DNA from: an uncultured Verrucomicrobiae bacterium
Lineage (GTDB): Bacteria; Chlamydiota; Chlamydiia; Chlamydiales; JAFEGQ01
Direction: 5' to 3'
Length of the DNA: 64,000 bases
Assembly (NCBI GenBank): GCA_963739345.1
Contig: CAVUAA010000001.1
Location: 859,749-923,748, forward strand
The notes below the pieces were generated by a model. That model was not told the DNA's origin and made no database searches. It saw only the letters and a list, made by a program, of their open reading frames with translations. Numbering within the stretch: position 1 is the stretch's first letter; each line of letters starts with the position of its first letter. Shown here piece by piece: positions 8,279-62,998 of the stretch. Made by a program: the position numbers and the translations under genes.

Positions 8279-8411
8279 GGGAGTTGATGCTACCCAGACG
8301 TAAAGATTGTAGCAAGCTCGAGGCAGCCTCACTATGAGATATCCCGATGAGGTTCCCAGCCGGATCGTAGGAATACGTGACATCGAAGGCCAAGATTGAA
8401 GCTAGCATCGA

Positions 8412-9191
8412 CTACCTATCGGCCGATGAACCCATCCCAGTAGTGTTTGAGATGTTGTCCGAGAGGTAAGCGAGCTGCGGAATGCGCAGGTCGATGACGT
8501 GGTTTCCTTCTAGCGGACAGAGCTTCTTGTAGTTGGCAAGCGCCTGCTTAACGTTACGAGGGGGCAATCTAAGGATGTGCTGGTTGGGGGGCGCGCCGAT
8601 AATCATGACAATCTGTCGCTGGCCGCTGCTCTCGGCCCCCATCTGGGCGGTGTCAATCCGCGTAATAGGTAACGAGGGATCGAGAAGAGTGAGGGCGTAA
8701 CGAAGCGATTCGGTGGTGATTTCAGCGAGATAGAGATCTGGAAGTTGACCGTGTGAAAAGGTGAGCGGGAGGGTGTTTCCGTCGCGGTCAATGCCGTAGC
8801 CTGGAAGTTCGGGAAGAGCGGCGATAGGCTCGCGGGGAGTGTAGTCGATGTAGAGGCCGGAGGGGTGGGCCCGGTCGACGTGGGCCGAGGCGATCAGCTC
8901 CGAGGAAATAAGTCGCTTTTCGAGCGCGCGGGGATTAAGGGCATAGAGGTTGTCGGTAGCGCTCACTCCCATGAGATGAGCAAGCACGGGCGTGGGAAGT
9001 TCGATCGCCCCCCTGCTGTGCGGATAGAGAGTAGTGAGAAGAAACCGCTCGTTGAAGTGGCGCTGCCGCTCCCAATGCTTGTAGTAGAGCCAGCCGGTTG
9101 TGGCCGAGCCGGAAACCAATAGTGTCGATCCAAAGATCATCAGCAGAGAGAGATAGAGAGGAAGCTTACGTTTGCGCATAGCGAAGAGCAT
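8412..9191 (-). CDS. ftsQ: FtsQ-like cell-division protein (N-terminal TM helix + POTRA-like region)
   Basis: It is the last gene of the dcw block, directly after murC/ddl. It has a single N-terminal TM helix (LPLYLSLLMIFGSTLLVSG) followed by a periplasmic domain. The start could instead be Met5 (9179). Confidence 0.6.
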   Translation of the reverse strand: MLFAMRKRKLPLYLSLLMIFGSTLLVSGSATTGWLYYKHWERQRHFNERFLLTTLYPHSRGAIELPTPVLAHLMGVSATDNLYALNPRALEKRLISSELIASAHVDRAHPSGLYIDYTPREPIAALPELPGYGIDRDGNTLPLTFSHGQLPDLYLAEITTESLRYALTLLDPSLPITRIDTAQMGAESSGQRQIVMIIGAPPNQHILRLPPRNVKQALANYKKLCPLEGNHVIDLRIPQLAYLSDNISNTTGMGSSADR

Positions 9192-11334
9192 GAATGATTA
9201 GGTGATCGACTAGCTCGGCATGAGGAATGCCAACGCGGGCGAGCGCTTGTGGGTAGGGACTGAACGGAGTGCAGCCGGGAAAGGGGTTGATCTCGTTAAG
9301 AATTGGATTCCCCTGCTCGTCGACGAACCAGTCGATCCGGCAGAGGCCGCGACAGGCGAGGGCGGAGAAGAGCTGTTTGGAGAGTTGCTGCAGCTCAGCC
9401 GCGCACGGCAGATCGGGAGAAAAATCGACCGGGTTGCCGGTGGCAGTGTATTTCCCTTCAAAGGTGTGAACGTTGTCGCCGGCCAGTATCTCAAATGGCG
9501 GCGCGGCGAAGAGTTCCGTGGTCTCAAGAAGTGCCACTTCTACTTGACGGCCCCGGATCATCGGTTCAATGATCAGACGATCGTCGATGGCAAACACCTC
9601 TTCAATCGCCGCAAGGAGATCCTCCGCCCGATCGACCCGGATAACGCCAAACGTGGAACCTTGATGGGCCGCTTTGACGAAGACCGGATAGGCCTCTACT
9701 TCAACCGATCCGTCCCAATACTTGCGACGAAGGTCGATAAACGGTGCAGTGGGAATGCCAAGCCCCTGTGCAACGTATTTGGTGAGCGCCTTGTCCATCG
9801 CGACTGCACCGGCGGCAATTCCACATCCCACATAGGGAACCTCGAGCGCCTCAAGGAGACCCGCGGCGGTTCCGTCCTCTCCGTGCGGCCCGTGCAAGCA
9901 GGGGATCACCACATCGGCCTTCTGAATCGCTTGCAGAGGCCACTCGCTCACATCATATCGCTCAACCGAGTAGAGCTCTGCTCGCAAGTTTTTCTCAAAG
10001 AAATCGGCTGACATCTTTGAGACCTCACTCTCAAGCGATTTTCCTCCACAGAGCAGCGCTACTCTCAACGGCGCAGGTTCAAATGGCGTCGCCCAGCGGG
10101 TGATGTCGCCAGCGCCCATCATGACGACTACATCTGTCGGACGCACCTCTATCGCCGAACGGTCGGGAGCGTAGCGGGCGGGCGGGTGGCGCGCAAGCAG
10201 CGCCTGCGCATCTACTCCTTCAATCGGTGCCTCTCCCGCACTGTAGACATCGGTGATGTACATCTCATCCGCCGCATCAAAGACAAACTGATCAAGACAC
10301 TTTTGTAACCTGGAGTAGCGATGGGGTTGAAAAACAGCGATCAGCCTGCGCGGACCTATCGCAGCCCGAATCCCCTCCAACGTCGTCGCCACCTCAGTTG
10401 GATGATGAGCGTAGTCATCGATGACCAGCACGCCCCCCCTCTCCCCTTTCACTTGGCACCGCCGTCCGACACCCGGAAATGAGGCCAACCCGCTTCGCAC
10501 TGCCTCTTCATCAACACCAAGTGAGAGCGCAAGCGCCAATACACCCGCTCCGTTGAGCGCATTGTGCTCTCCCAACGCTTGAACCGTGACATCGGTGAAC
10601 GCTTCTCCCTCAATCACCGCATCAAACGTCGTTGAAAATCCCTTCGCACGAATGTTCTTTGCATTGTAGGAGGTCCCCTTCGGCTTTCGTTTGCTGAGCC
10701 ATGCATCGTTTGCACACCAGAACAGTTTTTCGCTTTGCGCAAAAAACTGTTCATAGGCCGCCCACATTGCCTTTTCATCGCCGTAGTGATCGAGATGATC
10801 GGCTTCCACTCCCGTCACAATCGCCGCATGCGGCCGATACTTAGTGAAAGTCCCATCGCTCTCATCCGCTTCTGCCACAAAGTACTTGCCAGTTCCATGC
10901 CGTCCGTTTCGCTCGAGCCCTGGCAGCACCCCCCCAATCGCAAAAGCGGGATCTAACCCCGCCTCCATTAACACCCACGCCAGCATCGCCGACGTCGTCG
11001 TTTTCCCATGAGTGCCCGTCACCGCCAACACCTCAAACCCTTGCATCAGCTCACACAAAAGATCGGCCCGATGCACCGTCCTGCACCCCAAAGCCTTCGC
11101 CTTTTGAAACTCGACATTGTCCGGCTGAACCGCTGAGCTATAGATGACAGTCGCACCCGCAACCAGCTGCTCCCCTGCTTGTGCCGTGTCGACAGCCGCC
11201 CCCTCTTTTCGCAGCGCCGTCACGAGTGCGCTGTCGCGCAGATCGCTCCCACTCACCTCCATCTTCTGATCGAGCATCACCCTTGCGAGTGCGCTCATTC
11301 CAATGCCGCCGATGCCGATGAAGTGATAAGTCAT
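9166..11334 (-). CDS. murC: bifunctional UDP-N-acetylmuramate--L-alanine ligase / D-alanine--D-alanine ligase (MurC-Ddl fusion)
   Basis: 722 aa. The N-terminal half has the Mur ligase motifs GIGGIGMSALA and GTHGKTTTSAML. The C-terminal half is Ddl-like (VALLCGGKSLESEVS...LHGPHGEDGTAAGLLEALEVPYVGCG...EINPFPG). This fusion is a hallmark of Chlamydiae. Confidence 0.93.
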   Translation of the reverse strand: MTYHFIGIGGIGMSALARVMLDQKMEVSGSDLRDSALVTALRKEGAAVDTAQAGEQLVAGATVIYSSAVQPDNVEFQKAKALGCRTVHRADLLCELMQGFEVLAVTGTHGKTTTSAMLAWVLMEAGLDPAFAIGGVLPGLERNGRHGTGKYFVAEADESDGTFTKYRPHAAIVTGVEADHLDHYGDEKAMWAAYEQFFAQSEKLFWCANDAWLSKRKPKGTSYNAKNIRAKGFSTTFDAVIEGEAFTDVTVQALGEHNALNGAGVLALALSLGVDEEAVRSGLASFPGVGRRCQVKGERGGVLVIDDYAHHPTEVATTLEGIRAAIGPRRLIAVFQPHRYSRLQKCLDQFVFDAADEMYITDVYSAGEAPIEGVDAQALLARHPPARYAPDRSAIEVRPTDVVVMMGAGDITRWATPFEPAPLRVALLCGGKSLESEVSKMSADFFEKNLRAELYSVERYDVSEWPLQAIQKADVVIPCLHGPHGEDGTAAGLLEALEVPYVGCGIAAGAVAMDKALTKYVAQGLGIPTAPFIDLRRKYWDGSVEVEAYPVFVKAAHQGSTFGVIRVDRAEDLLAAIEEVFAIDDRLIIEPMIRGRQVEVALLETTELFAAPPFEILAGDNVHTFEGKYTATGNPVDFSPDLPCAAELQQLSKQLFSALACRGLCRIDWFVDEQGNPILNEINPFPGCTPFSPYPQALARVGIPHAELVDHLIIHALRYAQT

Positions 11335-26301: not shown

Positions 26302-28608
26302 TTATTGAGATTCGTTCAACAGGCGGGTGAGCTCTTCAAACACCCACGGTAAAAAAGCGAGCTGGAACTCGCGTGACGGCTCGCCGAGCGCCTTAGCTCG
26401 CTCAGCTTCGAGCTCTTTCACTTTCGCTTGATACCTCTTGGTGAGCTCTGTGATCGGCGCCATCATCTGCCGATCCTGTTTCAGTCGAAAGCCGAGCTGC
26501 TCTCTCTTCAGCGCCTCGAGCTGCTCACGCCTCTCGAGCAGACGCTTTCTCGTCTGAGAGGCACGAGCCAATAGCTCTTCACGAGCCTCCTCAAAGCGGG
26601 GGTCCCACTCTAGGAAGTTAACGGAGGCTGCTTGTAATTGCCTCGGACCTCCAACCTCTTTCGATGCTTCAAAGACACGCTGCCATGAGTGCTCAATACA
26701 GAGCTGACCCATCACCTCAGCCCGTTCGATATGGAGCTTCTTAAACCTCTCTTGGTATGCAGCTCGAAGGTAGTTCCGTTTTATCTCCCAATAGAGCTCC
26801 GCTTTGCACAACTCGCTGTAGCCAGGCGCTTCGCCCGCAATGATCTGTTCACTGACCGTCTTCAGCGCGTCAACCACATGCGCAAGCCCCTGGTTTTTGC
26901 CCCCTTTATGCAAGAGCTCGACCGCCTCGACCACCTTCTCGGCAAAAAAAGCTTCATCTTCACAAGCGGCCGCCTCAACCAGCTCGGAGAGATTGTTCCA
27001 CCCCAGATCGAAGATGGGGTGATCGCTGTGGTCGTAGATGGTGTTTAGGACGATGGTTAGAAAGTCCTTGGCAAGGCTATACAGCTCATCAGCTGTCTCT
27101 TTGACGGCATCGAGAGGGGGCGCATCGAACTCCTGCAGATCCTCCGCCCATTCTTCGATTTGCCTATCTATCGCCGGACCAATGACGAACCGGAAGACAA
27201 GCGGCTGGATGATGGCGCGTGCCGCCGGAATGAGCGCATAGAAGGTGGTCTTCTTGTTACGTAGTGACAGGACTCCATTGAGGAGGGTCTTGAGCGCTCC
27301 TAGTATGGTCTCCTGAAAGCCCCCCTCTTCTACGGCACTCCGGCCCTCCACCGGAACAACCTTTTGCTCGAGCGCAGAGGTATAGCTGCCAAGCGCCTTA
27401 GCAACACATGCCAGCTGCTTCGCCAGCTCCACCGGCTTTTCGGGTAGGTCCTCCAATGCTTTGATCGCGTCGCACACCACTTTGGTATCAATGCTGTTGA
27501 GCTCATTAACTTGGCTGAGCAGCGTCTCAACAGATTCCACCTTCTGTGCCTTCGCAATTTCCTGGCAACTGCAGATCAGCTCTGTCAAAGGTTTAAAAGC
27601 GGGGTAGTTCTTCTCCCATTTTCCTGCTTTTGCTCTCAGATAGGTGAAAGTACGCTCGACTTTGCCCATGAGCGAATCCACGCGAACTTTAACCAGGTCC
27701 CCGTGCCACGTACGTGTCATGGTGAGAAGCCGGGGTTCGTTTGCTTTGCCACCTTCCAAGAGGCCAAATAGCTCTGCAACCAACTCCAGCGAGGCAGTAG
27801 CCTCATTCCTGTTCCCAAAATGTGGACGGAGGGTTGTACGAGTCGAAACCTGTTCCTCCAACGAGTCACAGTTTTTGCGCAGATAACTGAGAATCGGTTC
27901 TGCAGCGTTGCGCACGCGATCGATCGCTGTGTTGAATCTCCCGGGGTCGTTGCCCCAGTAGCCACAAAGATGGCTCATCAGAGCGGAGACGAGACTCTTT
28001 AGTCGAACCATATGTTCGTCGACCGCGTTCCCGCGACGAATTAATTCAAAAAGAGCATCCCCACCCACGCCGCGGCTCAGTACCTCACCAAACCTTTTCT
28101 TCCGGTTAAGGTAGAGTCCCTTATGGAACTCTGTACACGCTCTCTTCCAACTCTGTGACACCTTACCCATTTTGTACCGGTGGACAGGAATCATGAAGCG
28201 CAATAGGTAGCGCTTCAGATCCTGTGGCGGATCGAACACATAATCGTCTGAAGTTGGAACCAGTTTCTTTTCGTCGTTCTGTAAAACATTGTCTTCCGAC
28301 ACGTCAGTGAACTCAGAGACGTCGAGTAACGTAGAACCAGCAGTGCGATCAACCCAAATGAGCTCAGTAACGTGAAGTAACGTAGAACCAGCAGTGCAAT
28401 CAAACCAAACTATGCCCTCTTCAGGCTTGTCGGCTTCTAACTCGACTTGTGGCTGCGAGCGGTGGCGTAGCGTATAGGTAACGCCAACAGCAATGAAGAT
28501 GGGGGTGGCGACGGCGGCGGTGCGGGCAACAAGTGACGCTTCATTCCATCCGCCACGAACAGATGAAAATAATCCTTGAGTCGAAGATAGTATTTCTCTT
28601 ACCGCCAT
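26302..28608 (-). CDS. large hypothetical protein: N-terminal TM helix, 17-aa tandem repeat, F-box-like motif, long helical/coiled-coil C-terminus
   Basis: 768 aa. TM helix AAVATPIFIAVGVTYTL. Tandem repeat WFDCTAGSTLLHVTELI/WVDRTAGSTLLDVSEFT. F-box-like PPQDLKRYLLRFMIPVHRYKMGKVSQSWKRAC. C-terminal stretch rich in E/K/R/L heptads. Confidence 0.6.
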   Translation of the reverse strand: MAVREILSSTQGLFSSVRGGWNEASLVARTAAVATPIFIAVGVTYTLRHRSQPQVELEADKPEEGIVWFDCTAGSTLLHVTELIWVDRTAGSTLLDVSEFTDVSEDNVLQNDEKKLVPTSDDYVFDPPQDLKRYLLRFMIPVHRYKMGKVSQSWKRACTEFHKGLYLNRKKRFGEVLSRGVGGDALFELIRRGNAVDEHMVRLKSLVSALMSHLCGYWGNDPGRFNTAIDRVRNAAEPILSYLRKNCDSLEEQVSTRTTLRPHFGNRNEATASLELVAELFGLLEGGKANEPRLLTMTRTWHGDLVKVRVDSLMGKVERTFTYLRAKAGKWEKNYPAFKPLTELICSCQEIAKAQKVESVETLLSQVNELNSIDTKVVCDAIKALEDLPEKPVELAKQLACVAKALGSYTSALEQKVVPVEGRSAVEEGGFQETILGALKTLLNGVLSLRNKKTTFYALIPAARAIIQPLVFRFVIGPAIDRQIEEWAEDLQEFDAPPLDAVKETADELYSLAKDFLTIVLNTIYDHSDHPIFDLGWNNLSELVEAAACEDEAFFAEKVVEAVELLHKGGKNQGLAHVVDALKTVSEQIIAGEAPGYSELCKAELYWEIKRNYLRAAYQERFKKLHIERAEVMGQLCIEHSWQRVFEASKEVGGPRQLQAASVNFLEWDPRFEEAREELLARASQTRKRLLERREQLEALKREQLGFRLKQDRQMMAPITELTKRYQAKVKELEAERAKALGEPSREFQLAFLPWVFEELTRLLNESQ

Positions 28609-28660: not shown

Positions 28661-28822
28661 AGACCCAGATTGCTACCCTATCACTCCTCTAGGGCGTCTG
28701 GTTTTAAGCAAGTTACGAGCATCGCGACGAACGGCGTGGCCACCAGCCAGGTCTGAGGAGCGAGGCAAAGTAGATTGCCAAAAACAGGCGTCATAGGGGG
28801 GAGAGTGTGGCAATCTGTGTCT
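28661..28822. repeat. ~160-bp TIR-bounded miniature element, copy A
   Basis: It aligns along its whole length with 48152-48317. The termini AGACCCAGATTGCTACCCTATC and GAGAGTGTGGCAATCTGTGTCT are inverted repeats of each other. Confidence 0.8.
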
Positions 28823-31800
28823 GAGTCTATGGCTAAGCTCTCTACAGATGTGGAGGAGGATGGTGGGCCGTTGAAGGACAAGGGTTTGGAAGGCCTGTTT
28901 TTCAAGAGAAAGGAGAGTGCAGTTGGTGGCGGCGGTGGCGGTGGCTGAGCGGGGCGCCTCTTCAAAGAGGGACATCTCGGCAAAATAAGCCCCCTGCTCT
29001 AGTGTAGCAATTTTTTGATTTGCCCGGGTGAGGGCGACCGAGCCCTTCCAGATGATGTAGAAACGATCGCCCGGACTCCCCTCTTTGAAGATGATTTCTC
29101 CTTTGGCGTAGGCTTCTTGATGGAGCTGTTCGTCGATGACGAGCAGCTCTTCGAGGAGAAGATCTGCAAAGTAGGGAACGCCTTTGAGAAAGAGTAGTCT
29201 ATTCACGGGGAACTCCTTGTGGTGAATGGCTGCCCAGACGGCTTGGGCACCCTGCTGCAGAAAGGGATCGATCGACTGTTTCATGGCCTGTTCGAGGTAG
29301 GAAAGAACGAGGGGGTGGTGGGTGTAGAGGGCGGGATCAACGGGGTCATGAAGGGTGGTGATGAGCTCTTTATCAACAACGGCGGCGTAGCGACGGGGGG
29401 CCTCGCGACGGATGAGCTGGGCGAGGTGGCCTCGCACCTCTTTGAGCTGTGGTCGGGTGAGCTGCTGGAGAGCAAGGGCCGACTGGTCGAGCCCCATGCC
29501 GTCGAGGGCAGCGACGAGATAGAGGAGGAGGCGCCGTTGCCGGTTTTGCATGGCTAGGCTGATGGGGGTCCAGATGCCACCCTCTTCGCGCAGGCAAGGG
29601 GGGAGCTTGAGGGAGGAGGCGAAGTCGTCGAGGCGAGGCTTGAACCAGCGGTCGAGCAGGTCGCGGCCGGGCTTTCCGGAAGCGGCGAGCGCCCAGATGG
29701 CTGACTCTACGACCCACGGATGAAGTGAAGAGAGGTGGCTGGCGGCCGCTTCGATGCCGGGAAGGTCGAGCTGAGAGAGGCCGCGGGCGGCAGCTTTGCG
29801 GACGAGGTCGGAGGGGTCTTCGATCAGGCGGGCGACATGTTCGACTCGGTTGTCGGCACCTGAGGCGACGAGAAGGTCGACGGCGGCGGCGCGGATGCGG
29901 GGCTCTTCGTGGAGACTCGCTCTGAGGGCCACTTCGTAGACATCGGCGTGCCCCTCCACCACTCCCTGGAGAGCGAGGCCGAGGGTGTGGATGGCCGCCT
30001 CGCGAACGCGGGGAGAGGGAAAGCGGGTGAGCTGCTTGAGGACGCGTAGGGTTTCGAGAGGCGCGCCACGCCGGATGATCTCGAGAAACTCGAGTAGGCC
30101 GTTTTCGTCGATATCGGAAAGATTGAGCCCCTCCCACGCGGCGGCGGCCAGCTTCCCCATCCCGAGCCGCCAGGCGGCGGCACAGGCGAGGAGCTGCACC
30201 CAGGTATCGTCGTCGCGGAGCCGTGAGGTGACAGGGACGATCCCCACCGGAATCTTGTGCAGGGCCACTGCGGCAAGCGCCCGCGCCCGCACCTGAACCA
30301 CGTCGGAGGTGAGAAGTTGCGCTAGCTGCTCTGGAGGGACATGTTTGAGATATTCAAGTGCAGCAGAGCGGCAAGCTGGGGTGGTGGCGCGAGGAAGAGC
30401 CTCTTGCGCCAGCTTCACATACCGCTGTGGATGCTGATTGCGGGCGGCGAGGAAGAAGCCAATTCGGATCGACTCGGGATCCTCTTCGGCAAGGAGCTGC
30501 TCAATCTCTGCAGGCTGTGCTGGAACAGCGTCGGAGCTCTCGTCGAGCGCCTCTAACCCAAGCCCCTTCCCACGAAATGCGGACTTCCAGCGGCGCCGGA
30601 GAAGAAGCGCTGTCCACAGGGAAAGGGCGACCACAACTGCCGCTGCTACAGCGGTCCAAGCGATCGCTTCTCGCCCGTCAAGTGGAGTGGGGTAGAAGAG
30701 CAAAATCAAACCGGCCACAAACGCTCCAACCGCCGTGCAGACAATGAAGATGAGCGTCCGGACGGCGCCGATCACACTTTTCGGGAGGAGCACCAACACC
30801 TGACGGACATAGGTGAGCTGCAGTCCCGGCATGAGGGAGAACCAGGAGAGGCTGACTAGCAGCGCCACCGTCCAGGAGGCGGGAACGAACACCCATAGAA
30901 TTAAGAGAGTGAGACGGACCACCGCGTAGATCATCGCCGTGGCCCCCACCCCAATGCGCTGCGAAATCCGCTCGGTGGAGAGGGTGAAAAGCGAGACGAT
31001 CACGGCGTTTGCCGCCACCACAGCAACAATCAGCAGACCGAGTGAAACAGGCGCCCCCCCAACCCGCTCGCCAAAGAAGGCGAACGTATTGGCCTGAATC
31101 GCGTAGCGGACGATCCGCCCAACAATCGAGATCACCGCAAGCGCGCCTACAACAGGATAAGTGGCCAAAATTCCCCGCCACCGGCTCGCTGGCAGATCGA
31201 ATGTTCCCACCACACCGGTTGAGCGACGGGGGAGCTTGGCCACCGCCATCGCCGTCAAGACGACGGTGCCGAGCGAAAGAATCGCCCACAGCCAAACCGC
31301 ACTCTCGTAGCGACCGGTGGAGACCCACGGAAGAAGGAGAAGTGCGCCGACGATTCCACCCGCCGCCTGAATGGGCAAAAAGAAGCCCGACAGACGTCCC
31401 CACTCAAACTCGTCGAACACGAGGAGGGCCACGGTCCTGAGTCGCCGGACCAACAGAGCGAACGAGATCTCGGCGATGACGAAAGCGAAAAATGAGCCGC
31501 CGACCGGACTTGAACCAAGGAGCAAACGGACTACCACCACCGCGCACACTGTTGCTAGCGCAATCCCGAAGTAGATCCAGCCGTGAAAAACCCACCGTGA
31601 AAGAAGCTCGGCCACTCCCATTGCAACCAGTAATGAAAGGCCCATCGCAAAGAAGGCGTGGGGCAAAAGATGGGGACCGGCATTGGCTAAAAAGAGCGTG
31701 TAGCTGAGCGCCATCCCAAAGAAGGCGGCAAGCAACACCACCACGTGCAGCGCCAGCAGGAGCGGCACAAACCGTCCAAGGCCGGCGCGCAGGCGCCACC

Positions 31801-31840
31801 GTCTCTCAATAGCTAGGGTGAGATTGTTGCTCATTATCAC
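28673..31840 (-). CDS. multidomain membrane protein: polytopic transporter-like N-terminus (MFS/TLC-like) + HEAT repeats + cyclic-nucleotide-binding domain
   Basis: About 12 hydrophobic helices in the first ~430 aa. HEAT-like repeats: PSPRVREAAIHTLG, EEPRIRAAAVDLLV, DPSDLVRKAAARGLSQL. cNMP-binding domain: FLKGVPYFADL...GEIIFKEGSPGDRFYIIWKGSV...YFAEMSLFEEAPRSATATA. The last ~49 codons are read from repeat copy A. Confidence 0.75.
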   Translation of the reverse strand: MIMSNNLTLAIERRWRLRAGLGRFVPLLLALHVVVLLAAFFGMALSYTLFLANAGPHLLPHAFFAMGLSLLVAMGVAELLSRWVFHGWIYFGIALATVCAVVVVRLLLGSSPVGGSFFAFVIAEISFALLVRRLRTVALLVFDEFEWGRLSGFFLPIQAAGGIVGALLLLPWVSTGRYESAVWLWAILSLGTVVLTAMAVAKLPRRSTGVVGTFDLPASRWRGILATYPVVGALAVISIVGRIVRYAIQANTFAFFGERVGGAPVSLGLLIVAVVAANAVIVSLFTLSTERISQRIGVGATAMIYAVVRLTLLILWVFVPASWTVALLVSLSWFSLMPGLQLTYVRQVLVLLPKSVIGAVRTLIFIVCTAVGAFVAGLILLFYPTPLDGREAIAWTAVAAAVVVALSLWTALLLRRRWKSAFRGKGLGLEALDESSDAVPAQPAEIEQLLAEEDPESIRIGFFLAARNQHPQRYVKLAQEALPRATTPACRSAALEYLKHVPPEQLAQLLTSDVVQVRARALAAVALHKIPVGIVPVTSRLRDDDTWVQLLACAAAWRLGMGKLAAAAWEGLNLSDIDENGLLEFLEIIRRGAPLETLRVLKQLTRFPSPRVREAAIHTLGLALQGVVEGHADVYEVALRASLHEEPRIRAAAVDLLVASGADNRVEHVARLIEDPSDLVRKAAARGLSQLDLPGIEAAASHLSSLHPWVVESAIWALAASGKPGRDLLDRWFKPRLDDFASSLKLPPCLREEGGIWTPISLAMQNRQRRLLLYLVAALDGMGLDQSALALQQLTRPQLKEVRGHLAQLIRREAPRRYAAVVDKELITTLHDPVDPALYTHHPLVLSYLEQAMKQSIDPFLQQGAQAVWAAIHHKEFPVNRLLFLKGVPYFADLLLEELLVIDEQLHQEAYAKGEIIFKEGSPGDRFYIIWKGSVALTRANQKIATLEQGAYFAEMSLFEEAPRSATATAATNCTLLSLEKQAFQTLVLQRPTILLHICRELSHRLRHRLPHSPPYDACFWQSTLPRSSDLAGGHAVRRDARNLLKTRRPRGVIG

Positions 31841-31883: not shown

Positions 31884-34042
<2,159 letters not shown>

Positions 34043-37772: not shown

Positions 37773-38186
37773 GTGAGCAAAGAAAGCAAGCCATTGGCCT
37801 GGTACAGTGGAGGTTTGAATTTCAAGTGCACGGAGTGTGGCAAGTGCTGCACAGGGGGGCCAGGTGCTGTGTGGGTCACACCAGAAGAGATTGCCGCCCT
37901 CGCCGACCGGGTAGGACTCTCCGAAAAGGCGTTTCGGGAGCAGTATACGGAGAAAGAGGGAAACAGGATCACATTGATTGAAAAGCCTGATTCCTATGAT
38001 TGCATTTTTTTGAAGGGCAAGCTTTGCTCCGTCTACGAAACAAGACCTAAGCAGTGCCGCACATTTCCGTGGTGGCCCTCCAATCTCTCTTCGCGCGAAG
38101 AGTGGAATAAAATAGAGTGCGAGGGGATCAACCCGGACGCGCCACTCGTCCCCTTTGAGGAGATCGAACGATGCAAAAACTCTTAG
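37773..38186 (+). CDS. YkgJ-family cysteine-cluster (CxxCxxCC) protein
   Basis: FKCTECGKCCTGGPG plus the downstream CIFL...CSVYETRPKQCRTFPWWP match the UPF0153/YkgJ Fe/Zn-chelating domain pattern. Confidence 0.75.
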   Translation: MSKESKPLAWYSGGLNFKCTECGKCCTGGPGAVWVTPEEIAALADRVGLSEKAFREQYTEKEGNRITLIEKPDSYDCIFLKGKLCSVYETRPKQCRTFPWWPSNLSSREEWNKIECEGINPDAPLVPFEEIERCKNS

Positions 38187-39875
38187 ACGCCACCACTGAA
38201 AAAAATGTGCAGGCGTGGCTGACGGGCGATTACGACGCCGAAACAAAGCAGGCGATTGAGGCGATGTCAACCGACGAATTGACCGACGCGTTCTACCGGC
38301 AGCTTGAGTTTGGAACGGGGGGCCTCCGCGGTCTAATGGGAGTGGGATGCAACCGGGTCAATGTCTATACCATCCGCGCTGCCACCCAGGGGCTTGCCAA
38401 CTACATCCGCAAGACCTCCCAGGGAGAGCCCTCTGTCCTTGTCGCCTACGACTCACGTCACCACTCTCGCACCTTCGCTGAGGAGACCGCCCGCGTGCTG
38501 GCCGCCAACGGAATCAAGGCCTATATCTTCAAAACGCTCCATCCCACTCCTCTCGCCTCCTTTGGCTGCCGCCACCTCCGGTGCGCTGCGGCAGTGATGG
38601 TGACAGCCTCACACAATCCCCCCGCCTACAATGGCTACAAAGTCTACTGGAGTCACGGCGGCCAGGTGCTCCCCCCACACGACCAGGGGATCATCAGCAG
38701 AGGTGACCATGGTCACCTCCCCCGACGATGTGCGCGAGGCGCCTCTCGACGATCCGCTCATCGAATGGATCGGCGAAGAGGTGGATCAGGCCTATCTCAA
38801 CACCATTGCTCACGAAGCGACGCTAAAAGACCAGAACAAGAGCCACGGCCCGCAGCTGCGCGTCGTCTACACCAGCCTTCACGGGACGGGCGAACCACTC
38901 ATTCTCGCCACCCTGCGCGAATGGGGCTTCACTGACCTCCACCCGGTCGAGAAGCAGTGCATCCCCGACGGTGACTTTCCTACCGTCGACAAACCCAACC
39001 CCGAGGAACAGGCGGCGATGAAACTGGGCATGGAGCAGCTGCAAGCTGTTGAGGGGGACATCCTTCTCGGCACCGACCCGGATGCCGATCGCCTAGGCGT
39101 CGGCGTCCGCCACAACGGCGAGGTGACCCTCCTCAACGGCAACCAAATTGCCTCCCTCTGTCTCGATCATCTTCTCACCCACTCCGCCCTCCCCCCCTCA
39201 CCCGCCGCCATCAAGACCATCGTCACTACCGAACTGTTTTCTGCCATTTGCACATCCCACAATGTCACCTGCTGCAACGTCCTCACCGGCTTCAAATACA
39301 TTGGCGAGCTAATGGAGTCGTGGGCGCGGGACGGCGACCACAGCTTTGTTTTTGGGGCCGAGGAGTCCTACGGCTACCTGGTCGGCACCCACGCCCGCGA
39401 CAAAGATGCGATCGTCTCCGCTGCCCTCGTCTGTGAGATCGCCCTCGATGCCAAGCTCAAAGGAGAAACCCTCCTCGACAGACTAGACGCGCTCTACAAA
39501 CAGCACGGCTTCTATCGGGAGGGGCTCCGCTCGCTCACCTTTGAGGGGAAGGCGGGAGCCGAGCGGATGACCTCACTCATGGAAGCACTCCGCGCCACTC
39601 CCCTCACCCACTTTGCAGGCATCGCCATCCGCACGGTCGAAGACTACAAAACCGCCACTGCCACTGACCCTTCCACTGGCAAGACAAGCTCCCTCACCCT
39701 CCCCCGCTCCAACGTCTTACTCTACTGGCTTAAAGATGGCAGCCGCCTCGTCGTCCGCCCCTCAGGAACTGAGCCGAAAATCAAACTCTATGGCGGTGTG
39801 ATGGATAAGGAGCTCTCCACCGCCGACGAGAAGCTCGACGCCCTCCTCACTGACCTCCAAGCACACCTCCAATGA
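38171..39875 (+). pseudogene. alpha-D-phosphohexomutase (phosphoglucomutase/phosphomannomutase family) with a +1 frame break near 38690-38700
   Basis: First frame: ...GTGGLRG...VMVTASHNPPAYNGYKVYWSHGGQVLPPHDQGII (active-site TASHNP). Second frame: AEVTMVTSPDDV...YTSLHGTG...GTDPDADRLGV...GAEESYGYL...RPSGTEPKIKLY. Together they make one colinear ~567-aa enzyme. Confidence 0.85.
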
Positions 39876-52841: not shown

Positions 52842-53773
52842 CGGATCCGATTCCTCTCTATCGTTGCCAACAGCCGCTCATTGAACTCCTTTGCCGAATG
52901 CCTCCCCATCTGCTTTAGACGGGTGTTGAGGGCAATGGTCTCAATGAGCAGCACCACATCCCGTCCCGGTTTGACGGGTAGAATATGAAGCGGAATTTGG
53001 AGGCTCAAGATATCACAACACTTCTCATCAAGTCCAACCCGATCGTAACAATGCTGATCATTCCACTCTTCCAAACGGACAACGGTGTCCACTCTTTTGC
53101 TTCCGCGGACGCAGACAGCGCCATACAAAGTGGCAACGTTGATGATTCCTATCCCTCTAATTTCCATGTGATGGCGAGTGAGTGCATCACCGCTTCCCTC
53201 CAGAAATCCATTCTCTTGTCTGCGGATTTTGACGATGTCATCGGAAATAAGTCGGTGTCCTCTCTCAATGAGGCCGAGTGCCGCCTCGCTTTTTCCCACC
53301 GACGCCTCTCCTTCGATCAACACACCGACTCCAAACACTTCAACGAGCGTCCCATGCATGCAGGTTGAGGGGGCAAACTCCTCGCTTAACATTACGGTGA
53401 CTCGCGACCAGACGTCGGCGGTGCGTAAGGGAGAACGAAAAAGAGGGACCTGCGCGTTTTCACACAGCTCGATCATGTCTTTTGGAGGTTGTAAGCGACG
53501 GGCGACTATAATGGCCGGTGTCCGGCGAGACAAGAGAGCGCGCAATCGTTGGAGGCGGGTCCTTTCGGGCAAGCTGCGGAGGTAGCGGATTTCGACCCGC
53601 CCCATCACCAAGATCCGTCGATCGGCGTAGCCGTCGAGATAGCCGGCCAGCGCCAATCCTGGTCGATGCGCTTCAGGAACGGTGATCCGACGCTTGAGCC
53701 CCTTCGCTCCTGCGATGAGTTGCAGTTGCAAATCGCCGCCGTGCCGCTCTTGGAAGTCCTTTAATGTATACAT
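52838..53773 (-). CDS. hprK: HPr kinase/phosphorylase
   Basis: From the Met at 53773: MYTLKDFQERH.... Walker A GEASVGKSEAALGLIERGHRLISDD, then the HMEIRGIGIINV signature. The upstream 46 codons of the track ORF overlap the preceding gene and are rejected. Confidence 0.88.
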   Translation of the reverse strand: MYTLKDFQERHGGDLQLQLIAGAKGLKRRITVPEAHRPGLALAGYLDGYADRRILVMGRVEIRYLRSLPERTRLQRLRALLSRRTPAIIVARRLQPPKDMIELCENAQVPLFRSPLRTADVWSRVTVMLSEEFAPSTCMHGTLVEVFGVGVLIEGEASVGKSEAALGLIERGHRLISDDIVKIRRQENGFLEGSGDALTRHHMEIRGIGIINVATLYGAVCVRGSKRVDTVVRLEEWNDQHCYDRVGLDEKCCDILSLQIPLHILPVKPGRDVVLLIETIALNTRLKQMGRHSAKEFNERLLATIERNRIR

Positions 53774-54525
53774 GCTAGGTAAAATACCAGCCAATCTAAG
53801 AAGGTAGGAAATGCGAGCGTCTCCCCTCCACTTCCCTTCGCCTGTGGGTCTGAGAGTGAGTGCTCCTGTGCAGAATAGTAGAGATTGCCCATCTCCTGCT
53901 CGGGATACCAATCAGCATAGAAACACTGGTAGGAATCGAGGCCGTAGCTTTGATAGAAGGGGATGAGATGGTTGCCGTTGACCAGTTCCCGATTGCGGAG
54001 GGTGAGTGGCCCCTCCAGCTGGAGACGCGCTGGAACCTCTTCAACAGAAAGGACTCCGGTATCACCAGCTTTTCCAAAGCCGTTGTGAATTTTGAAGAAG
54101 GCGAGGTAGTCGCTGGGCAGCTCGTGAGCGACGTGGGCAGCGCGGAAGCGTAGCACCTCGTTCCGATCAGCTGGCGGCTTTCCCCAATAGAAACCGGAGC
54201 CGTCGGCGAGCGAGTAGAGAAGGAGGAACTCGAAAGGGGCCCCCTCGTTCTCCTGCGTCATCAAGACGCCTACATCATCGAGCTCCTTGAAAAAGCATTC
54301 AATGGGGTGCTGGGTGCGGGGGTGGTAAGGAAGAGTGGCGGCCCAAAAACCGCGGGTGAAATCGACCCGGTCTTCTGCTGTCAGTCTCGAGAGCTCAAAC
54401 CAGCCGCGGGGGAGATCGGGGCAGCATTCAGAGAGCTGTTCCCACGAAGCATTCTCATCCTCGTGCAAGGCGACTACCTTGTGAAACCGGTCGCTTCTGA
54501 AGTAGTTGCGAACTTGCTTGTTCAT
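53761..54525 (-). CDS. SMI1/KNR4 (SUKH)-like protein
   Basis: ELPSDYLAFFKIHNGFG...LIPFYQSYGLDSYQCFY resembles the SUKH-1 LPxDYxxFLxxxNG ... pattern. It lies between comEC and hprK and overlaps the hprK start by 13 nt. Confidence 0.45.
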   Translation of the reverse strand: MNKQVRNYFRSDRFHKVVALHEDENASWEQLSECCPDLPRGWFELSRLTAEDRVDFTRGFWAATLPYHPRTQHPIECFFKELDDVGVLMTQENEGAPFEFLLLYSLADGSGFYWGKPPADRNEVLRFRAAHVAHELPSDYLAFFKIHNGFGKAGDTGVLSVEEVPARLQLEGPLTLRNRELVNGNHLIPFYQSYGLDSYQCFYADWYPEQEMGNLYYSAQEHSLSDPQAKGSGGETLAFPTFLDWLVFYLACIH

Positions 54526-58207: not shown

Positions 58208-58960
58208 TTGCTGGGAGTAGGTTTGTCAAACTGGTTGGCTCTATTGCTAGGCCTTGTCCAAGGTCTCACTGAATTTTTACCCGTTAGCTCCTCAGGCCAC
58301 CTCAAGCTCTGTCAGCTCTTTTTTGGGCTCGAAACCCTAGAACAGTACGTTTTTTTTGATCTAGTCTGCCACGGCGGCACCCTCCTCGCCATCTTAGTGG
58401 TCCTAAGAAAAGAGATCCTCACCCTCAATCGGCGAACAATCCTCCTCCTCACCCTCGGCACCCTCCCCCTCTGTCTCGCTCTCCTCTTCAAGCGACAAAT
58501 CGAGACTCTCTACGGCGCCACCTCGCTCCTCGGCCTCTGGTTTTTGCTCACCGGCGTCATCCTCCTCATTGGCGAGCGGTGGAGGCCAGGAACTCCCGGA
58601 AAACGGTGGAGCGCAGTCAGTGTGGGCTGCGCACAGCTCCTTGCTCTCATGCCGGGGGTGTCGCGCAGTGGCGCCACCATCTCAGCTGGGCGGGTGCTCG
58701 GCTGGGAGCGGATGGAGGCGGCCCGTTTTGCCTTTCTCCTCGCCATCCCCGCCATCGGCGGCGGCATGCTGATTGAGGGGATGAGCGCGACAGCCGCGGC
58801 GGTCCCCCTCCCCACCTACCTGATCGGCTTCGTCACATCCTTCCTGGTCGGCATGCTCGCCCTCCTCGGCCTCCTCAAGCTCATTCAGCGCTTTAATCTT
58901 CTCCCCTTCGCCTGGTATACATTAGCGGTAGGAACCTTTACCCTGATTTACACACGATGA
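58208..58960 (+). CDS. uppP: undecaprenyl-diphosphate phosphatase
   Basis: LGLVQGLTEFLPVSSSGHL and PGVSRSGATISAG are the two BacA/UppP signature motifs. Confidence 0.9.
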   Translation: MLGVGLSNWLALLLGLVQGLTEFLPVSSSGHLKLCQLFFGLETLEQYVFFDLVCHGGTLLAILVVLRKEILTLNRRTILLLTLGTLPLCLALLFKRQIETLYGATSLLGLWFLLTGVILLIGERWRPGTPGKRWSAVSVGCAQLLALMPGVSRSGATISAGRVLGWERMEAARFAFLLAIPAIGGGMLIEGMSATAAAVPLPTYLIGFVTSFLVGMLALLGLLKLIQRFNLLPFAWYTLAVGTFTLIYTR

Positions 58961-61068
58961 CACAGAAGACAGCCACCATCACACCTGAACTGCGCGGCAT
59001 GGGCGTCCTCCTCGGCACCTTCCTCCTCCTCTTGAGCTTGCTGCGAGGGCAGGCGCACGACCTCGGCGTCGTCGGCTTCGCCACCAGCTGGTTCTTCCAA
59101 TTCACGTTTGGCCTCGGCAGCTTCATGATTGTTGGCTATCTTGTCTGGTGGAGTTGGCGGATGCTCACCGGTAAGCTTCCCGAGCGGCCACGGCGCGAAC
59201 TTATCTGGTTCTCCACTCTCCTCCTCTCAGTGAATGTTCTACTCAGCGTCATCTCCGTCGCGTGGCCGGGCGTCGCCGCCTTCTGCCGCCCACTCATCTA
59301 CTCCGACACCATCACTCATGTCGCCCCTTTGGCCTATGGAGAGGTGCGCTACCCCCTCGGCGGCCTCCCCCTCTACCTCCTCTACACCGACCTCCCTCTC
59401 ATCAACCTCCGCCACCTCCTCAGCTCCATCGGCACCACCATCATCTTCTCCGCCCTTGCCGCCGCCTCCATCCTCGCCCTCACGGAGATTAGGCTCCTCC
59501 CCCTCCTCAAGCAGGCGCTCCAAAAGCGGCCCAAGGTCACCCTTAAAACACCTCCCCGTCGGGTCGTCCTCCCCAAGGTGCCGCCTCCTCCCTCCAAGCC
59601 CAAGCCACAGCAGATGCCAACACCGACCCCAACCTCAACACGCCGGGTCCGCGCCTACGACCTCCCCGCCGACAACATGCTCACCGAGCCACAACACGTT
59701 GACATGGCCGACCTGAAAAAAGAGCTTCAAAAACAAGCGCAAGTTCTAGAGGAGACTCTTCAGAACTTCGGCATCGAAGCCAAAGTTGGCGAGATCAACT
59801 GCGGCCCCACCATCGCCTCCTTCGAAGTGCACCCTTCCGTCGGCGTCAAAGTGCAAAAGATCAAGGCGCTCGAGAACGACATCGCTCTGAATTTGCAAGC
59901 ACGATCTATTCGAATCATCGCACCCATTCCTGGAAAAGCGGCCGTCGGCATCGAAATCCCCAACCCCAAGCCGCAGGGGGTGGTCTTCAAAGAGATGCTC
60001 GCTGCCTATCATGGGAGCAAGAAAAAGTGTGGCATCCCCCTTCTTCTCGGAAAGGCGGTTAATGGCGAAGCGGTCATCACAGATCTGGCCAAAATGCCCC
60101 ACCTCATCATCGCCGGCGCCACCGGCTCCGGAAAATCGGTCTGCGTCAACGCCATCATCATGTCCATCCTTCTCAACATGCGCCCCGACGAGATCCGTCT
60201 TCTTATGATCGATCCCAAAAAGGTGGAGCTCACCCCCTACTCCCGCCTCCCCCACATGCTCGCCCCCGTCGTCACCGAGCCGCACGAGGCGTGCATGGCC
60301 CTCAACTGGCTCGTCAAAGAGATGGAGAATCGATATGAGATCTGCCGCCGCGTCGGCGTCCGCAATATCGACTCTTTCAACTGCCGCAAACGGAATGTCG
60401 CCAAAGAGGCCGAGCTCGAGATTGACATTCCCGAGCATCTTCCCTACATCGTCGGCATCGTCGATGAGCTCGCCGACCTCATGATGGCCTCACAGAGCGA
60501 CATCGAAACCCCCATCACCCGCATCGCCCAGATGGCCCGCGCCGTCGGCATCCACCTCATCCTCGCCACCCAGCGCCCCTCCCGTGAGGTAATCACCGGC
60601 CTCATCAAGGCCAACTTCCCCGCCCGTATCGCCTTCAAAGTGGCCAACCGGATCAACTCGCAGATCATCCTCGACGACACTGGCGCCGAATCGCTCCTCG
60701 GCAACGGCGACATGCTCCTCCTCCCCCCCGGCACCGCCAATCTCATCCGCGCCCAAGGAACCTACGTCAGCGACAACGACATCAACTCCGTCATCGCCCA
60801 CATCTGCGAACAAGCCCCCACCGACTACCAAATTGAGAACTTCCGCGACGCCCCCGGCATGGGCGCACAAGACGCATCTGAAAGGGATACACTCTACGAA
60901 GATGCCCTCTCCCTTGTCACCTCTACCGGCGTTGCCTCCACCACCTTCCTCCAGCGCAAGCTTAAAGTGGGCTACGCCCGCGCCGCCTCCATCATGGATC
61001 AGCTCGAGCAAAACAGCATCATCGGCCCCCAAGAAGGCGCAAAACCCCGTCGTGTGTTAACTAGTTAG
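58957..61068 (+). CDS. ftsK: DNA translocase FtsK
   Basis: N-terminal TM helices, a Pro-rich linker, and a motor domain with Walker A GATGSGKSVC, IVDELADLMM and ATQRPS. The C-terminal gamma domain reads TTFLQRKLKVGYARAASIMDQLE. Confidence 0.92.
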   Translation: MTQKTATITPELRGMGVLLGTFLLLLSLLRGQAHDLGVVGFATSWFFQFTFGLGSFMIVGYLVWWSWRMLTGKLPERPRRELIWFSTLLLSVNVLLSVISVAWPGVAAFCRPLIYSDTITHVAPLAYGEVRYPLGGLPLYLLYTDLPLINLRHLLSSIGTTIIFSALAAASILALTEIRLLPLLKQALQKRPKVTLKTPPRRVVLPKVPPPPSKPKPQQMPTPTPTSTRRVRAYDLPADNMLTEPQHVDMADLKKELQKQAQVLEETLQNFGIEAKVGEINCGPTIASFEVHPSVGVKVQKIKALENDIALNLQARSIRIIAPIPGKAAVGIEIPNPKPQGVVFKEMLAAYHGSKKKCGIPLLLGKAVNGEAVITDLAKMPHLIIAGATGSGKSVCVNAIIMSILLNMRPDEIRLLMIDPKKVELTPYSRLPHMLAPVVTEPHEACMALNWLVKEMENRYEICRRVGVRNIDSFNCRKRNVAKEAELEIDIPEHLPYIVGIVDELADLMMASQSDIETPITRIAQMARAVGIHLILATQRPSREVITGLIKANFPARIAFKVANRINSQIILDDTGAESLLGNGDMLLLPPGTANLIRAQGTYVSDNDINSVIAHICEQAPTDYQIENFRDAPGMGAQDASERDTLYEDALSLVTSTGVASTTFLQRKLKVGYARAASIMDQLEQNSIIGPQEGAKPRRVLTS

Positions 61069-61071
61069 AAT

Positions 61072-61980
61072 ATGGAGATCTACGACCCCGAGTCGACCCC
61101 CCAGAACACCTACCTCAAACTGTGGGGGACGCGCGGCTCTGTCCCCGTCTCAGGTGCCCACCACACCCGCTTTGGGGGAAACACCGCCTGCCTCGAGATC
61201 CGCCGCTCCGACCACCTGATCATCATCGACGCTGGCACCGGCATCCGGGCTCTTGGTGATGAACTCTTAACGACTAAGTTCCGCGAAATCCACTTGATCA
61301 TCGGCCACAACCACTGGGACCACGTGATCGGCTTTCCCTTCTTCCAACCCCTCTACCGCTCCGACTTCGTCGTCCACATCTACGGCCCCACCCACTACGG
61401 TAAGAACACCGAGGCCGCCCTCCAGCAGATCCTCGAGCCCCACCACTTCCCCGTCCGCCTTGACGAGCTAAAGTGCTCCCTCCACTTCCACGAGATCGCC
61501 CCTGGCGACACCGTTGAAATAGGGGACGTCAAAATCGACACCTGCGCCTGCGACCACCCCGGTGGAGCCCTCGGCTTCCGCATCCACCAGCCGGACCACT
61601 CCATCGCCTACATGACCGACAACGAGTTTCTTAAAGGCTACCGCGGCCACCCCAACGACATCACCCTCGACTCTGAAGCGCTCGCCCCCTACCGTGACTT
61701 TGTCGAATTTGTCCACGGCTCCGACCTCCTCATCCACGAAGCGCAATACACCCCCCGCGAATATGCCGGTCGCATTGGCTGGGGGCACACCTCCATGTCC
61801 AACGCCGCCGCCCTCCTCCGCCTAGCCAACATCCGCGAATGGGTCGTCACCCACCACGACCCCGCAGCCACCGACGACCGCCTCCGCACCCGTCTCCAGC
61901 TCATGTGGCAGATCCTCCGCGAATGCAATACCCACTGCCACGTCTCCATGGCCTCCGACGGCATGAAACTTCTCCTTTGA
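61072..61980 (+). CDS. MBL-fold metallo-hydrolase
   Basis: The HLIIGHNHWDHVIGFPFF (HxHxDH) motif, plus downstream DHPGGALGF and HEAQY... elements. Confidence 0.75.
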   Translation: MEIYDPESTPQNTYLKLWGTRGSVPVSGAHHTRFGGNTACLEIRRSDHLIIIDAGTGIRALGDELLTTKFREIHLIIGHNHWDHVIGFPFFQPLYRSDFVVHIYGPTHYGKNTEAALQQILEPHHFPVRLDELKCSLHFHEIAPGDTVEIGDVKIDTCACDHPGGALGFRIHQPDHSIAYMTDNEFLKGYRGHPNDITLDSEALAPYRDFVEFVHGSDLLIHEAQYTPREYAGRIGWGHTSMSNAAALLRLANIREWVVTHHDPAATDDRLRTRLQLMWQILRECNTHCHVSMASDGMKLLL

Positions 61981-62050: not shown

Positions 62051-62608
62051 ATGGCCAAGATTCGATTGAAGGAGCCCTACTTGGGCAACATTGCACTTTG
62101 TCTGGTGGCTGCAGAAGCCATCGAAGAACTGCAAGAGGCGTGTGAGGAGCTGGGGCATGTGGCTGAGGCGGCCACCAGGGCACACGTCGCCATCGCACAG
62201 CTACATGAAGATTGGGCCAACTGGCTCGAGGATCCAACCCAAGAGACCCTGCAGCCAGTGCTAGCCGACCTGCACGATCTCAAAGCTCTCCAACCTCGCC
62301 TCTATCAGGAAGTACTCAGCTTCTTCGAGCCAGCTGACCAAGAGATCACCGCTCACCTCAATGGGAAAATGACATTGGGCGACGTGCATGCCAAATTCCT
62401 CGACCTGACAGAAGACCCTCACCAGATGCCCAGCTGGGCGCGCGCCATTTCAGAGGCCAACATCTTAGAGATAACTATTCTCGATGCCATCGCAAAAAAC
62501 ACCCATCCGACGCTCTGTCTCCTCTACGGACAGGCGCAGGCGGTCTTTCACTCAGCTATAGTGCAACCTGTCTCCGAAGGTCACCCAGAAGCTCCTTCAC
62601 CTGAGTGA
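62051..62608 (+). CDS. hypothetical acidic helical protein
   Basis: 185 aa with no TM helix or signal peptide and no recognised family. Its 3' end overlaps the convergent FliS-like gene by 53 nt. Confidence 0.4.
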   Translation: MAKIRLKEPYLGNIALCLVAAEAIEELQEACEELGHVAEAATRAHVAIAQLHEDWANWLEDPTQETLQPVLADLHDLKALQPRLYQEVLSFFEPADQEITAHLNGKMTLGDVHAKFLDLTEDPHQMPSWARAISEANILEITILDAIAKNTHPTLCLLYGQAQAVFHSAIVQPVSEGHPEAPSPE

Positions 62609-62921
62609 TGGCCGTCGTGTCATAGGCGAGAGTGGCCTGGGCGATGTTGAAATCCATGTAATCATAGATGCGAAAGAGATTGGCCGCCGTCGGCCCTCCG
62701 TGCTGGAGGTCGAGCGCCTTGATCAGCTCCGTGAGAAGCCCTTGCGCCGCCACTAGCCGCCGACAGTAGGTGTCGGTCCATGAAGGGGCGTGATCCCTGA
62801 TCGCCACCTCCGCTTCAGAGAGCAGTTTGGCCAGATCATCATAACGATCAATGATCGCATCGGCCGAAATCACATTCACTTGACTCGCCATCATCGCACC
62901 CCACTTACGCACTTGCTTCAC
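62556..62921 (-). CDS. FliS-like export chaperone
   Basis: Colinear by eye with B. subtilis FliS as recalled from memory. SADAIIDRYDDLAKLLSEAEVAI aligns with TPGELTLMLYNGCLKFIRLAAQAI. AAQGLLTELIKALDLQHGGPTAANLFRIYDYMDFNIAQATL aligns with KAQNIIQELNFTLNRNIELSASMGAMYDYMYRRLVQANI. The size (~111-121 aa) fits. Confidence 0.55.
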   Translation of the reverse strand: MKQVRKWGAMMASQVNVISADAIIDRYDDLAKLLSEAEVAIRDHAPSWTDTYCRRLVAAQGLLTELIKALDLQHGGPTAANLFRIYDYMDFNIAQATLAYDTTAITQVKELLGDLRRQVAL

Positions 62922-62998
62922 CTATCTATTATAAACTTTTTATTTGTCAATCTTTTTCAGATTGAGATTAAGGGACTTGATCGGCTACACCGTTTTCG

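Follow-up and report, generated by a model that had tools for sequence, protein, structure and literature searches.

In Salmonella, the N-terminal helix α1 of the flagellar chaperone FliS is freed upon flagellin binding and then docks in a hydrophobic cleft of FlhA-C, with Ile7, Tyr10 and Val13 as the docking residues; the tyrosine is described as ‘absolutely conserved’ and is indispensable for motility and for the complex to form (PMC5932034). The same docking has been confirmed for Bacillus subtilis (PMC6070490). The ancestor of the Chlamydiae is inferred to have possessed a flagellum (PMC5604735, PMC9816063), and the Chlamydiaceae, which have no flagella, carry cryptic FlhA, FliI and FliF homologues that are proposed to work with the non-flagellar system for type III secretion (T3SS; PMC5604735). 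Flagellar gene sets are found in marine, sediment and sponge chlamydiae, namely in the single-amplified genomes AB-751-O23 and AG-110-M15, in clade CC-IV and in Ca. Sororchlamydiaceae. The literature that we searched on chlamydiae and flagella, including by the name FliS, held no discussion of a chlamydial FliS. Here, we describe a FliS-like gene at 62556..62891 on the reverse strand of a 64,000-nucleotide stretch of contig CAVUAA010000001.1, from an uncultured bacterium; this whole stretch is referred to as the window. The gene lies in a housekeeping locus free of flagellar genes, and its product retains the FliS bundle but lacks the canonical tyrosine-bearing docking segment.

An earlier note on this DNA had judged the product colinear with FliS by eye and had proposed comparison with the Pfam FliS profile, PF02561. 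The match is significant (E = 2.7e-13; 50.6 bits, with the cutoff at 26.7) and covers profile positions 17–109 of 115. Searched against the PDB, the profile of the family matched solely FliS chains or FliS–FliC fusions (6ch3_B at 7.7e-10 and 5maw_E at 3e-8, also 1vh6, 1ory, 3iqc and 5xef). An AlphaFold2 model built with nine family sequences (predicted local distance difference test score, pLDDT, 87.9; predicted template modelling score, pTM, 0.80) is an antiparallel four-helix bundle with helices at residues 10–33, 38–59, 66–89 and 92–110. A Foldseek search of the PDB with this model returned FliS for 15 of the top 15 matches, at template modelling (TM) scores of 0.80–0.84 and with root mean square deviations of 1.2–1.6 Å for the best. 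The most conserved core motif of FliS, located on helices 3 and 4, is kept as LDL..GG..A.NL.RIYDYM....A. Profile and predicted fold together confirm, far above chance, the FliS identity of the product, and the reading by eye stands. Membership in FliS is itself not new, as automated annotation (JGI names) already calls relatives FliS; the window gene is probably unannotated in its source record.

Compared to canonical FliS (PF02561; 1ORY, 5MAW, 3IQC, 6CH3), which binds flagellin at its C-terminal D0/D1 region and keeps it from polymerizing too early, the window protein is alike in its Pfam match, predicted bundle, core motif, size and acidic isoelectric point (pI). It differs in being ~11 residues shorter at the N-terminus, where α1 and the invariant tyrosine are missing, and in falling below the cutoff of the NCBIfam fliS equivalog TIGR00208 (32.6 against 53.75 bits). 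The gene differs too in its location, which is a yycJ–ftsK housekeeping block rather than the vicinity of fliD, flagellin or other flagellar genes.

The extent of the N-terminus depends on the start codon. The open reading frame (ORF) at 62556..62921(-) is intact and would encode 121 residues if read from a GTG at 62921, and the earlier note had allowed for a product of ~111–121 residues. Alignment of the upstream region with orthologous loci places the true start at the ATG at 62891, which yields 111 residues (MASQ...) followed by the stop codon, because the frame upstream of this shared ATG is closed in orthologues (by TAA in L001 and by TGA in L004) and a GAGG/GGGGTG Shine–Dalgarno sequence directly 5′ of the ATG is conserved among them. 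The shorter product is thus upheld, and the longer one is ruled out by the in-frame stops.

The family was aligned with 134 other FliS representatives, 119 of which have complete N-termini and were counted. Among these 119, a median of 28 residues precedes the conserved ‘LY’ (Tyr17 in the window protein), and this N-terminal stretch holds a tyrosine or phenylalanine in 113, typically in the pattern Y-[KRQ]-x3-[IV]-x-[TS]-A-[ST]-P. The corresponding stretch of the window protein, up to Tyr17, is 17 residues long (MASQVNVISADAIIDRY) and contains 0 aromatic residues; the N-termini of P0010, P0012 and P0035 resemble it or are shorter still. In the structural model, residues 1–9 (MASQVNVIS) are disordered and no helix α1 precedes the first helix of the bundle. 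In the profile alignment with FliS chains in the PDB, full-length matches begin at query residue 10–11, which corresponds to chain residue 19–26. Alignment and model therefore show that the canonical tyrosine-bearing docking segment is absent from the window protein, with the bundle and core motif retained.

Close relatives of the protein are few. Word-indexed searches recovered three close homologues, at 74–94% identity, and HMMER, run exhaustively over 1.84 billion representatives, yielded 520 matches at E ≤ 1e-3, only 11 of them at E ≤ 1e-10, a scarcity that marks the protein as a divergent FliS. The ten family members considered here, which are 28–93% identical to the window protein, comprise the window protein itself, P0001–3, the near relatives P0010, P0012, P0020, P0022 and P0035 from the exhaustive search, and P0159 from a profile search. 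Three top matches of the exhaustive search, P0009, P0011 and P0015, were set aside as spurious; all are long tandem-repeat proteins and two are coiled-coil-like. P0009 and P0011 (3295 and 1849 residues) are giant coiled-coil proteins with a repeat containing ‘TTWSDLCCQRLEEITSLRTEL’, similar to ‘PSWTDTYCRRLVAAQGLLTEL’ of the FliS-like protein, and their high scores are spurious because many weak partial matches (34 and 20 stretches, respectively) add up. No relatives were found in a species-representative genome collection scanned with the single protein and with the family alignment, and a metagenome scan recovered only distant ordinary FliS genes, that of L006 among them. The exact protein is likewise missing from a 15-billion-protein collection.

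All ten members have an intact ORF, and the gene is under purifying selection. Ratios of nonsynonymous to synonymous substitution (dN/dS, Nei–Gojobori) are 0.069 against L001, at a synonymous divergence (dS) of 0.50, 0.115 against L003 and 0.26 against L004, comparable to 0.09–0.13 for the flanking yycJ. The gene is thus maintained.

The genomic context is readable for nine of the ten members, a count that leaves out P0002 on its 749-bp contig, and in 9/9 the FliS-like gene occupies the same slot. The shared order, read in L001–L005, L012 and L014–L016, is yycJ facing away from the FliS-like gene, then a variable slot, then a gene of the metallo-β-lactamase (MBL) fold, ftsK and bacA on the opposite strand. 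Where contigs extend far enough, one side of the locus carries the second MBL gene, ftsK, bacA, a gene for NDH-2 (type II NADH dehydrogenase), comEC and phosphotransferase system (PTS) genes, and the other side carries genes for an E1 dehydrogenase, dnaJ, rpsU, tsaD and lon. In the window, the second MBL gene (61072..61980, forward strand; RNase Z/PhnP-like, 302 residues, Lactamase_B_2 at 2.6e-17) forms the conserved far flank, and an orthologue of 262–306 residues is found beyond the FliS-like gene in L001, L002, L004, L005 and L014–L017. The syntenic housekeeping block continues with ftsK (58957..61068, forward strand; FtsK_SpoIIIE, alpha and gamma domains), whose position is shared by L004, L005, L014 and L016.

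The FliS-like gene is paired divergently with yycJ in L001, L003, L004, L005, L012, L014, L015 and L016; at the position of yycJ, L002 has a 33-residue gene on the opposite strand that is cut by the contig end and has no Pfam assignment. The window yycJ-like gene (62999..63793, forward strand; MBL-fold hydrolase, Lactamase_B_2 at 4e-25) is separated from the FliS-like gene by an AT-rich spacer, as had been noted earlier, of 107 nucleotides and 39% guanine plus cytosine (GC; 62892..62998). The spacer carries the Shine–Dalgarno sequence and a conserved promoter-like region, and is almost the same in L001 and L002, with good conservation in L003 as well. Within it, hexamers resembling TTGACA...TATAAT are conserved, with an 11-nucleotide spacing that does not make a textbook σ70 site; a scan with the σ70 consensus found no canonical promoter for the FliS-like gene on its strand. 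An 8-mer resembling a σ28 element (GCCGATCA) was spotted by eye in the alignment ~90 nucleotides upstream; as a properly spaced −35 element is absent, no such promoter is claimed. As a separate observation on this side of the locus, a 41-nucleotide near-palindrome (AAATTGTCACATTCTGGGACAGTCCCCAATTGTGACAATTT) begins within the last codons of yycJ and occurs in two inverted, 100% complementary copies 45 nucleotides apart (63751–63791 and 63837–63877). Each copy in turn forms a 20+20 hairpin and no further copy is present in the window; a terminator, a recombination site and a REP-like element are all possible readings.

The locus is free of flagellar genes, in agreement with the earlier note. No other flagellar or T3SS Pfam family was found among the 42 larger ORFs of the window, and families for flagella, chemotaxis or type III secretion were likewise absent among the called genes of the related loci (about 90 kb, reaching 2–10 kb to either side in L001, L003, L004, L005, L012, L014, L015 and L016). 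The distant ordinary FliS of L006, in contrast, sits in a fliD–flaG–fliS cluster. The FliS-like gene is lineage-wide and fixed at one housekeeping locus in a poorly sampled, relatively GC-rich clade. What is new is this fixed non-flagellar location across the lineage, together with the consistent N-terminal truncation and the accompanying loss of the gate-docking motif.

Three prime of the FliS-like gene, the window carries a convergent gene for a lineage-specific acidic protein of 185 residues (62051..62608, forward strand). The coding sequences overlap 3′ to 3′ by 53 nucleotides (62556..62608), and both the overlap and the acidic, helical character that the earlier note had described are borne out (pI 4.7; AlphaFold2 prediction all-helical at pLDDT 58). 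The protein has no match in Pfam, NCBIfam or PDB sequences even at E ≤ 10, and Foldseek with its model returned nothing at E ≤ 0.001. Four close homologues are present in the protein collection and orthologues in L001–L003. They share the strongly conserved core W.NWL.DPTQETLQPVLADL...EVLSF.EPAD, and with dN/dS of 0.11–0.35 this is a real protein under purifying selection. The overlap is due to a C-terminal extension (SEGHPEAPSPE) that is predicted to be disordered (pLDDT 30–40) and is absent from the L003 orthologue, where the genes overlap by four nucleotides.

Only the window and its closest relatives, L001–L003, carry the 185-residue gene, which is absent from L004, L005, L012, L014, L015 and L016. 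In L004, L005 and L016, the FliS-like gene and the second MBL gene are immediate neighbors, with no gene in the slot (at 10318 in L004 and 10358–10560 in L005). Elsewhere, the slot holds a Toluene_X porin-like gene (L014, 10453–11634), a 92-residue ORF with a DUF302 gene (L015, 1963–2644) or a gene for a 356-residue membrane protein (L012, 1765–2835). The position 3′ of the FliS-like gene thus varies in content, a new observation, and the occupant of this slot in the window is not a conserved partner or client. The suggestion of the earlier note that the overlapping protein is a candidate client of the chaperone is accordingly not supported, and a client relationship confined to the closest relatives finds no support either. 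Its assignment to FliS holds, as does, over the 64-kb window, its view of the gene as isolated from flagellar genes.

The window is likely of chlamydial origin, as the earlier note had supposed, judging from a fused MurC–Ddl (9166–11334), a cluster of genes for division and the cell wall (dcw) that ends at ftsQ without ftsA or ftsZ, and its gene content, which includes DUF2608, SNF-family transporters, HPr kinase and PTS genes. The order lon–tsaD–rpsU–dnaJ–E1dh...comEC–ptsH–ptsI, read in L004 and L016, appears to follow that of CT344–CT336 of Chlamydia trachomatis, and the gene order around the locus appears to follow CT738/CT739 as well. Background for the FtsZ-less dcw cluster and MurC–Ddl as hallmarks comes from the Planctomycetes–Verrucomicrobia–Chlamydiae group (PMC5147048). 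The lineage is unusual, poorly sampled, GC-rich and chlamydia-like.

Other features of the window were observed in passing. The groEL gene (32470–34042, forward strand) is apparently frameshifted: its N-terminal ~72 residues are encoded in one frame to about 32700, and the remaining 450 residues in another (ORF 32594–34042, aligned to GroEL models from position 73 onward). Either the gene is a pseudogene or the long-read assembly contains an indel error. A second apparent frameshift in the 64 kb splits a phosphoglucomutase/phosphomannomutase gene (38171–39875, forward strand) into two overlapping ORFs in different frames, encoding domain I (38171–38935) and domains II–IV (38631–39875). Behind each of two very large RHS-repeat proteins (1711 and 1503 residues) come small ORFs without assignment, an immunity-like gene of the SUKH/SMI1_KNR4 type and a DDE transposase (3248–8383, 21431–25942, 53761–54525 and 1753–2649, all on the reverse strand); such polymorphic-toxin equipment is unexpected for a genome with a main contig of just 1.25 Mb. 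A 1055-residue protein with HEAT repeats and a C-terminal cyclic-nucleotide-binding domain (28673–31840, reverse strand) adjoins a 768-residue protein without a family match (26302–28608).

Taken together, a model for the FliS-like protein emerges, which we hold to be slightly better than an even bet: a maintained, diverged chaperone of the FliS family that wraps the amphipathic helix of a client encoded elsewhere, without canonical tyrosine-mediated docking to FlhA, and that is most simply a vertical relic. Chaperone activity is suggested by family and predicted fold. The four-helix bundle would wrap an amphipathic, likely C-terminal, helix of a secreted or self-polymerizing client and thereby keep it export-competent. 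Since the tyrosine-bearing FlhA-docking helix α1 is absent, the protein might hand its client over differently or merely hold it. The client might be a flagellin if the genome keeps flagella and a non-flagellar substrate otherwise, and the gene would most simply descend from the inferred ancestral flagellar system of the Chlamydiae. A more specific version is that the clade has no flagellum and that a shortened FliS was exapted, losing its docking helix to hold or deliver a non-flagellar client, such as a substrate of the chlamydial injectisome or of the cryptic FlhA/FliI/FliF set; this we advance tentatively, as possible though not probable.

Several observations weigh against the model. Loss of gate docking may not be family-wide, given that the P0020/P0159 subgroup retains a shortened ‘SYKSKS’ N-terminal motif with a tyrosine. 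A neighbor-joining tree of FliS, with 143 representatives, unites the ten syntenic members and P0112 in one split at only 26% bootstrap, so that a common origin of the family rests mainly on synteny. The chlamydial placement also meets difficulties: no rRNA was found in the window, neither of two scans of the species-representative genome collection recovered the lineage, and the window GC content of 56% lies above the published chlamydial range (~26–50% GC; PMC5826181, PMC8242063). The related loci span 47–59% GC, with most at 52–59%.

The gene could instead be an ordinary flagellar fliS that was relocated beside yycJ and chaperones flagellin, with a full flagellar set elsewhere in the genome. 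Full or near-full sets do exist in several chlamydial lineages (PMC5604735, 10.1101/577767, PMC9666466), one family member (P0035, in L016) comes from a TARA ocean metagenome, and retention of the core motif and strong purifying selection are what an ordinary fliS would display as well. Nonetheless, the window and 2–10 kb around eight related loci hold no flagellar gene, the fliD–flaG–fliS clustering usual for such genes (as in L006) is missing, the score lies under the TIGR00208 equivalog cutoff, and the protein lacks the helix with the invariant tyrosine that flagellin export requires in Salmonella; we regard an ordinary fliS as the main alternative, though not a probable one. FliS of Salmonella also binds the anti-σ28 factor FlgM, and Chlamydiae keep a σ28; the bundle might thus have been recruited for a regulatory or other non-export role, for instance the sequestration of a regulator, perhaps linked to yycJ through a shared divergent promoter region. 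The divergent pairing kept in all readable loci, the strong conservation of the spacer among close relatives and the loss of the gate-docking segment would suit such a role. Adjacency need not imply a functional link, however, as housekeeping DNA makes up the entire syntenic block; a regulator-like partner did not come to light, and the sole σ28-like element is GCCGATCA, seen by eye and lacking a properly spaced −35. We consider a regulatory role improbable.

We consider it very improbable that the overlapping 185-residue protein is the client. It is adjacent and convergent in the window and L001–L003, helical, acidic and under selection, all of which would fit a partner, but six distant loci keep the FliS-like gene without it and fill the slot, if at all, with unrelated genes, its sequence gives no flagellin-like or other family signal and its model no fold match, and the convergent orientation precludes co-transcription. 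The view of the gene as functionless, whether a remnant in decay or a chance ORF, is effectively refuted by selection and conservation. The exact protein is missing from the 15-billion-protein collection, even though five other window proteins (including the 185-residue neighbor, FtsK and the 302-residue MBL protein) are present there, all from a single NCBI/ENA contig of 1,252,598 bp, and at least two genes in the same window are frameshifted; these points are outweighed by an ORF intact in 10/10 members, dN/dS of 0.07–0.26, a conserved Shine–Dalgarno sequence and upstream region, and a confident, well-packed AlphaFold2 model.

Set beside the described chlamydial systems, our favored model, that of a maintained and diverged FliS-family chaperone, would add to the cryptic FlhA, FliI and FliF of the Chlamydiaceae another export-related protein that stands outside a flagellar cluster. 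The cryptic set consists of cytoplasmic and membrane parts of the export apparatus, whereas FliS-like proteins would be substrate-specific late chaperones. With the flagellar sets of the single-amplified genomes, clade CC-IV and Ca. Sororchlamydiaceae, the gene shares its phylum-level background, and a FliS is expected there; in flagellated chlamydiae, however, flagellar genes are clustered, while in nine lineages the FliS-like gene has none nearby, and the docking motif is gone. The locus also marks a GC-rich, chlamydia-like lineage that is absent from scans of the species-representative collection.

The roles of the flagellar export homologues kept by Chlamydiae have long been unclear, and the FliS-like protein bears on what such relics bind; being small, soluble and easily expressed, it offers a handle for finding their partners. 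If the clade is flagellated, flagellin delivery can work without the canonical FliS–FlhA contact. If it has no flagella, substrate-specific flagellar chaperones, and not only core parts of the export apparatus, can be repurposed, and, with an exapted FliS, a flagellar chaperone specific to a substrate would for the first time be known to have outlived the loss of the flagellum with a new client.

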